Shown here one piece after another: positions 40,787-41,352 of a stretch of 64,000 nucleotides of DNA (positions are counted from its first letter, which is position 1; every line of letters begins with the position of its first letter). The notes beneath the pieces were generated by a model that was given only the letters and a program-made list of their open reading frames with translations, did not search any database and was not told the DNA's origin. The position numbers were made by a program, and so were the translations under genes. Location: NCBI RefSeq assembly GCF_056712565.1, contig NZ_CM160072.1, one strand, 5' to 3'.

Positions 40787-40810
40787 GATTACCTCTGCAT
40801 CCTGGCGCAT

Positions 40811-41029
40811 CTAAAGACTGGCTTTACAGAGTTCAACACGGTTTCTACCTCGTCTTTTGGCGATATACAGAGCTTCATCGGCTATTTGAATGAGGCGCTC
40901 ATAGTCAGGATGACCATTAAACATGGCGGCACCGATGGAAAGTGAGAGGGCAATATCCTCGCCGTTTGCGGCTTTAAAATAATGTCGACCTTTATGGTTA
41001 AACCGCAGGCCAAAATCAACCAAACACAA
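40811..41029 (-). pseudogene. dosC: 3' remnant (about 70 codons) of a diguanylate cyclase gene; 5' portion absent
   Basis: Translation ends with a GGDEF-domain C-terminus (…SIGAAMFNGHPDYERLIQIADEALYIAKRRGRNRV…); an in-frame stop lies shortly upstream and no globin or GGDEF core is present. Confidence 0.55.
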
Positions 41030-41352
41030 CGTGCGAGATCGACTAACTGCACCATATTTTCCTGAAATATGAAGATATACTGAAAAGAAATAAGCGACTT
41101 AGGACAGTTTCAATCTACGCTACTGTTCTTCAGAAGAGTATAGCCCATCGTAATTATTTTTCGGTGACAGCGAATATCGTATGTTTTTTCATATTCATAC
41201 ATTTTTATTAGGGGGATTATGGCTGTTTAACTAAGTGTGGTTAATTGCGTGGTTAATTTGACGTATTTATGCATGATTGCTAGTGGGATAGTTCAAGAGG
41301 GTAACAAGCCAGTGGGTAAAGCACCGGCTTGTTACAAAGTAAGAATGGGAGT

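Follow-up and report, generated by a model that had tools for sequence, protein, structure and literature searches.

Whether a gene can outlive the partner with which it is co-transcribed is the question raised by the dosCP locus in the 64,000-nt stretch of DNA analysed here (the window; contig NZ_CM160072.1, assembly GCF_056712565.1), which matches the E. coli type strain DSM 30083 = ATCC 11775 with 100% identity. In the window the c-di-GMP phosphodiesterase gene dosP (pdeO) is complete and its partner, the diguanylate cyclase gene dosC (dgcO), is reduced to fragments; how dosC was lost, how widely, and whether dosP is still transcribed and used are considered below. It is very probable that dosC was pseudogenised long ago by two deletions and that this state has been inherited since, with fixation most likely on the stem of phylogroup B2; dosP and its promoter were spared in the process, and dosP is still transcribed.

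Gene order and features of the locus

The region comprises maeA, sra and bdm on the minus strand, osmC on the plus strand, and then, again on the minus strand, dosP, an ORF for the tail of a GGDEF domain, digH (yddW), gadC and gadB; the counterpart interval of K-12 reads osmC, ddpFDCBAX, dosP, dosC, yddY, digH. The ddpXABCDF operon (6.15 kb in K-12) is missing between osmC and dosP, and a 53-bp stretch of the scar is 81% identical to internal ddpF. dosP is flanked on both sides by deletions, each ending just short of the gene (Table 1). In the adherent-invasive strain LF82, which carries the same dosC-deleted locus, pqqL is a 1.16-kb truncated pseudogene (L008 10451-11608) with ydeM directly next to it, and yddA and yddB are apparently missing; pqqL of the type strain is full-length.

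Table 1. Coordinates of the features of the dosC-deleted locus, numbered from the first position of the window.
Feature	Position	Strand	Basis or remark
osmC	37766-38197	+	other neighbour of dosP
ddp deletion scar, 66 bp including a 53-bp degenerate ddpF fragment	38242..38307	.	BLAST against K-12
dosP (pdeO), heme-PAS c-di-GMP phosphodiesterase gene, intact, 799 codons	38387..40786	-	ORF list; RefSeq DosP
Unchanged spacer between the dosC and dosP cistrons, the dosP Shine-Dalgarno GCAGAGGTAATC preceding the ATG	40787..40810	-	inside BLAST block 38308-40975
dosC 3' remnant, codons 407-460 and stop (end of the GGDEF domain)	40811..40975	-	BLAST against K-12 12759-12923
yddY' ORF, 57 codons	40882..41055	-	yddY start and first 11 codons kept, stop codon deleted
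Junction B	40975/40976	-	site of the 531-bp deletion
44-bp dosC island, residues ~216-229, DFGLWFNHKGRHYF	40975..41018	-	BLAST against K-12; phylogroup G strain 4806-4849
Junction A scar	41019..41021	-	BLAST and junction views
Retained 102 nt of the 147-nt dosCP 5' UTR	41022..41123	-	BL21 5' end mapped via gap-free alignment
Candidate sigma-S-type -10 element CTATACT, context GGGCTATACTCTT	41137..41143	-	identical in K-12
12-bp tandem duplication AATTAACCAC(G/A)C, upstream of the putative promoter	41235..41258	-	alignment; K-12 lacks it
Inverted repeat GTAACAAGCCGGTGCTTTACCCACTGGCTTGTTAC, likely the digH terminator	41301..41335	-	adjoins the digH stop codon
digH (yddW), intact, upstream neighbour	41353..42672	-	

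Two deletions in dosC

Comparison with K-12 by BLAST resolves the locus into three collinear blocks, which delimit two deletions in dosC rather than one. The first block (window 38308-40975, K-12 locus 10256-12923) holds dosP and the last 165 bp of dosC; the second (window 40975-41018, K-12 13454-13497, 97.7%) is a 44-bp internal piece of dosC; the third (window 41022-43000, K-12 14187-16152) runs from inside yddY upstream into digH. The deletion endpoints are the same when the comparison is made with the closest intact relative, a phylogroup G strain. Both dosC fragments have ~97-99% identity with K-12 dosC and with its counterpart in the phylogroup G strain and lie in the syntenic position between digH and dosP.

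The upstream deletion, deletion A, spans ~685-689 bp (13498-14186 in K-12 coordinates, including the ATG at 14141) and removes dosC codons 1-215 with the start codon and ribosome-binding site (RBS), as well as 45 nt of the 5' UTR and the final 8 nt of yddY; neither the start codon nor the RBS of dosC was found in the window by BLAST against K-12. Deletion B is in frame: 531 bp are missing, equal to 177 whole codons (DosC 230-406), among them those of the GGDEF motif (residue 374), so that the 44-bp island and the 3' remnant share a reading frame. With the closest intact relative as reference, 5 bp at junction A (TGATT) may represent microhomology and are accompanied by a small scar or imprecision next to the junction; junction B has an overlap of just 1 bp.

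The fragments are joined in a minus-strand ORF of 72 aa (40811..41029) that has a TTG start and contains ...ADEALYIAKRRGRNRV...; the first 4 of its codons belong to the junction or the leader, 14 (DFGLRFNHKGRHYF) derive from the middle domain and 54 from the C-terminus of DosC. By Pfam the ORF covers positions 115-161 of the 161 of the GGDEF profile (E = 5e-8). A complete GGDEF domain with the active-site motif (residues 374-378) is not present in the remnant, the motif falling within deletion B; the middle domain, DosC_2nd (PF21118), is incomplete, with positions 37-54 of 110 and 21.4 bits against a cut-off of 31 (Pfam); and the sensor globin (Protoglobin, PF11563), which matches K-12 DosC at 27-155, has no Pfam match in the remnant, its region lying within deletion A. 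In RefSeq the 165-bp piece is annotated as the pseudogene 'diguanylate cyclase domain-containing protein, missing N-terminus'. What is left of dosC is a pseudogene and not a functional DosC/DgcO member; two short dosC fragments of this kind are unable to encode a diguanylate cyclase. Within the dosC remnant of another carrier, Ecol_AZ146, there is a 1-bp deletion (L003 3823-3986), and the 72-aa ORF is frameshifted in ST131-like strains.

These results modify the first-pass annotation of the locus, which had described about 70 C-terminal dosC codons next to an intact dosP. The remnant is real, dosP is intact and the end of a GGDEF domain does remain, but the C-terminal codons number only 54 and the remnant consists of two fragments; the in-frame stop placed directly upstream of the remnant lies 27 codons upstream of the first dosC-derived codon. 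The alignment with intact dosC that had been proposed as a check maps the endpoints of the two deletions, with both fragments matching dosC and no intact dosC found.

The spared promoter and leader

Between the 72-aa ORF and the digH stop codon lies a spacer of 323 bp (41030-41352) with 37.8% GC, compared with 48.5% for the whole window, in agreement with the AT-rich stretch of about 300 bp noted earlier up to the yddW stop. Alignment indicates that the K-12 digH-dosC intergenic region is kept from the digH stop to 45 nt before the dosC ATG, which answers in the affirmative the question of whether the dosCP promoter survived: to judge by the sequence, the promoter region is retained. The retained leader is highly conserved with K-12 save for the 12-bp tandem duplication far upstream, which is present in all five of the carrier leaders aligned.

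The transcription start can be placed by reference to the BL21(DE3) transcriptome, in which the 5' UTR of dosC is 147 nt (PMC5435950). The BL21 5' end corresponds to K-12 locus position 14288 and approximately to window position 41123, ~100 nt upstream of the deletion edge; transcription in this strain would therefore start near 41123. The -10 element listed in Table 1 is a tentative assignment, as its distance to the BL21 5' end, 14 nt, is greater than usual. The dosCP operon is RpoS-dependent in K-12 (PMC5635695), and a SELEX peak for the RpoS holoenzyme has been reported at yddW/yddV (PMC5493296); a mapped dosCP promoter was not found in the literature, which gave just this coarse RpoS SELEX peak and the BL21 5' UTR length. 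A generic promoter scan of the leader returned one sigma-70-like match, no more than in shuffled sequence. No terminator was predicted in the new leader by a generic terminator scan, and an Rfam scan of the leader gave rli61 as its sole match, at chance level (E = 0.45). It is likely that carriers use the old dosCP promoter for dosP.

The leader also contains the start of a small gene. YddY is a protein of 13 aa in K-12 that has been detected by epitope tagging (PMC6001520), and yddY sits in the dosC leader. An intact 13-codon yddY is not present in the window; the start and 11 codons are retained and the stop codon was lost because of deletion A, leaving the yddY' ORF to read out of frame through both dosC fragments and to end 95 nt before the dosP start. 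The ORF has 57 codons in all six carriers examined for it. Its N-terminus varies, with L7P in two strains and V5A, D6N and L7P in an ST131-like strain, and its product has no family match in Pfam. The yddY Shine-Dalgarno (41056-41062) reads AGGAA in the type-strain window alone and AGGAG in K-12 and four other carriers. Translation of the 57-codon ORF is plausible; a function for its product is speculative.

Integrity, selection and expression of dosP

The dosP ORF is uninterrupted and encodes a PAS-PAS-GGDEF-EAL architecture in which the GGDEF domain is degenerate; an alternative upstream ATG is found at 40810. The Pfam domains of DosP comprise PAS at 25-124 and 142-253, GGDEF at 378-525 and EAL at 547-781, the EAL domain spanning positions 3-236 of the 236 in the profile. 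The catalytic motifs EAL at 576 and DDFGTG at 697 are positioned as in K-12. H77 and M95 (807-aa numbering), taken here to be the heme axial ligands of EcDOS, are both present. Relative to K-12, dosP displays 59 nt and 11 amino-acid differences (98.6% protein identity); nine of the 11 are common to the phylogroup G strain, which keeps dosC, and are therefore older than the dosC deletion.

Full-length dosP is found in the window and in six further carriers, that is, in 7 of the 8 carriers examined; in the remaining one, BCE049, there is a stop at codon 203 (L009 7156-9555). In another carrier, CRE287, an IS3 element separates the promoter from the dosC remnant and dosP (L007 2762-3990). In Cimdins et al. 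(2017), dosP of the B2 strain B-11870 is reported with a stop codon.

Among the seven carriers with intact dosP, 18 synonymous and 9 nonsynonymous polymorphic codons are seen, with a mean dN/dS of 0.16; given a neutral expectation of ~76% nonsynonymous changes, neutrality is rejected (binomial p = 3e-6), and dosP is under purifying selection among carriers. The neighbouring genes have lower dN/dS values among carriers (digH 0.06, gadC 0.09), and the higher value of dosP is compatible with some relaxation of selection.

RNA-seq, which had been suggested as a check on dosP transcription, is available in published form for LF82, and puts dosP there at the MG1655 level. In LF82, a strain other than that of the window, dosP (WP_014640147.1) has a value of 17.7 in the wild type and 7.4 in a ppGpp0 mutant; the MG1655 values from the same study are 16.4 and 4.9. 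The dosP mRNA level and its ppGpp dependence are alike with dosC (MG1655) and, in this one carrier, without it (LF82). Because of these three lines of evidence, integrity, selection and expression, dosP is considered to be still in use.

Distribution and order of events

The junctions were searched for in a survey set of 5,426 complete E. coli genomes. Junction A is present in 1,047 of them (61-bp query), junction B at full length in 1,054 (60-bp query), and both together in 1,047, about a fifth of the set (85-bp query); the intact dosC configuration is found in ~4,335. The loss of dosC, earlier presented as a feature of one strain, is thus shared by more than a thousand genomes. Some matches to the locus, 1 to 8 places per search, fall on plasmid-labelled records, which are probably mislabelled or chimeric.

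The seven extra junction-B genomes were suspected to be evolutionary intermediates, but a synthetic query for deletion B alone matched no genome in the set; its best matches cover 84% of the query and all have intact dosC. The seven genomes that have junction B without the full junction A probably represent secondary changes at junction A, for example the IS3 insertion of CRE287. Because of the junction counts and the lack of any deletion-B-only genome, deletions A and B are taken to travel together in all sequenced descendants; the two were fixed either in close succession or by a single complex event.

Among the carriers are the type strain, LF82 and one ST131-like strain, all of phylogroup B2. 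The equivalence of carriers with B2 is suggested by a few named strains together with the counts, on which the placement on the B2 stem also rests. In line with this placement, Cimdins et al. (2017) report DosC as absent from four strains, all B2, and as present in B1 and D strains.

The ddp-less junction is present in 1,116 of the 5,426 genomes, namely the dosC-deleted carriers and 73 genomes with intact dosC; the latter, which lack ddp and have dosC-dosP intact, were retrieved with a synthetic 'ddp-less plus intact dosC' query and include strain G12. G12 has been published as O78:H4-ST117 of phylogroup G, and G and B2 are described as sister groups. The simplest and most likely history is that ddp was lost before the split of B2 and G and dosC later, on the B2 stem. 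BCE049, the most divergent ddp-less match, was considered as a sister lineage and rejected, as it proved to be a typical carrier that has undergone a further small deletion and has the dosP stop.

Proposed explanation and alternatives

Under the proposed explanation, the ~685-689 bp upstream deletion cost dosC codons 1-215, its start and RBS along with the final 45 nt of the 5' UTR, and the in-frame 531-bp deletion cost it codons 230-406 with the GGDEF active site; both end short of what dosP needs, namely the promoter region, 102 nt of 5' UTR, the spacer and RBS, and the whole gene. Since promoter, UTR, spacer and dosP are retained, transcription of dosP would still start at the old stationary-phase promoter, which depends on ppGpp and RpoS, and would now yield a monocistronic mRNA whose leader is ~337 nt long. 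Carriers would then keep the oxygen-activated c-di-GMP phosphodiesterase DosP without its partner cyclase DosC, and a shift of local c-di-GMP signalling toward degradation, resulting from loss of DgcO and retention of PdeO, is plausible.

The observations could in principle be attributed to a mis-read frame, an assembly error or a laboratory-history deletion private to one strain. This reading has practically no probability left and is considered refuted: identical junctions recur in 1,047 complete genomes that were sequenced independently and come from human, animal and environmental sources, a recurrence that rules out chance or assembly error, and each RefSeq record inspected annotates the pseudogene. 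A quite unlikely possibility is that dosP is itself an orphan being lost, its function or proper expression having gone with dosC, and that it persists only for lack of time. Some carriers do have a broken dosP or a disrupted leader, dN/dS among carriers is about twice that of the neighbouring genes, and dosP mRNA is low in absolute terms. These points are set against the full length of the ORF in all but one of the eight carriers examined, an excess of synonymous over nonsynonymous changes at which neutrality is rejected, ddp and dosC deletions that end exactly short of dosP and its signals, and an mRNA level and ppGpp dependence in LF82 equal to those of K-12; together they favour a dosP that is maintained.

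Two further readings concern what the deletions left or created. It is unlikely, but conceivable, that the deletion made a new translated gene, in which the YddY start is followed by 46 out-of-frame dosC codons to give a partly hydrophobic product of 57 aa in ~1,000 genomes; its translation across half of the 337-nt leader may be what keeps the dosP mRNA from being terminated early, or the peptide may have gained a separate role. Very unlikely is the broader proposal that a functional small protein is made from the 72-aa GGDEF-tail ORF or from the 57-aa yddY'-dosC' chimera, or that translation of one of them is needed for dosP expression. The retention of the yddY start codon and Shine-Dalgarno together with the translation of YddY in K-12, the constant length of the 57-codon ORF in six carriers, and its extent over about half of an otherwise untranslated leader would fit a useful remnant. 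Against it, the 72-aa ORF starts from TTG with no visible Shine-Dalgarno, is without every catalytic element and is frameshifted in the ST131-like strains; the 57-aa ORF is without a family match, its N-terminus has 1-3 amino-acid changes among close relatives, and the overall similarity of carriers is too high for its conservation to be meaningful.

Comparison with known systems

The finding is correct but conceptually ordinary. A major clinical lineage, represented by ST131-like strains, LF82 and the type strain, appears to lack DosC yet keeps and expresses its antagonist DosP, and K-12 models of oxygen-dependent c-di-GMP signalling are therefore not transferable to it unchanged. The two junction sequences can mark the allele, whose distribution appears to follow that of B2. 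The analysis also puts the events in order, with ddp lost first and dosC second, and gives evidence of continued selection on dosP alone.

The absence of DosC from B2 strains that keep DosP is already published, and the pseudogene is already annotated. The DosC-negative, DosP-positive B2 strains Tob1, Fec67, No.12 and B-11870 in Cimdins et al. (2017) almost certainly carry the same allele; there, Povolotsky and Hengge (2016) are cited for DosC being 'frequently absent'. Such earlier reports, in the parts available, give presence or absence only; to these are added here the exact anatomy of the two deletions, the spared promoter and most of the 5' UTR, the evidence for selection on and expression of dosP, the yddY read-through ORF, the population count, and the order of events relative to ddp loss and phylogroup G, with dosC loss placed after the G split. 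The 'dosP' described in another paper as amplified together with blaTEM-1 on a plasmid has no relation to the present locus.

The K-12 dosCP operon (dgcO-pdeO, formerly yddV-dos) is like the locus of the window in its position relative to digH and to osmC/ddp, in its promoter region and most of its 5' UTR, and in a dosP with four domains; it differs in having two functional cistrons, whereas in the window destruction of the first cistron leaves what is in effect a monocistronic operon. DgcO exceeds all other cyclases of stationary-phase K-12 in abundance and acts as an interaction hub of the c-di-GMP network; in K-12, DosC and DosP are co-transcribed and act together on PNPase in the degradosome complex (PMC5635695). 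Links of DgcO to curli, PNAG and RNA processing that depends on PNPase have been described, with colanic acid and swarming as recent additions. The dosCP operon of phylogroup G (ST117) shares with the window the ddp-less osmC-dosP junction and nine of the 11 DosP differences from K-12; it has a complete dosC of 460 aa, with 4 differences relative to K-12, and a yddY with the normal stop, and it is considered to represent the state before the dosC deletion. Decay of other GGDEF/EAL genes in E. coli and Shigella lineages follows a similar pattern of lineage-specific loss via deletions, frameshifts and stop codons; what sets the present case apart is that one partner of a co-transcribed antagonistic pair was lost and the other spared.
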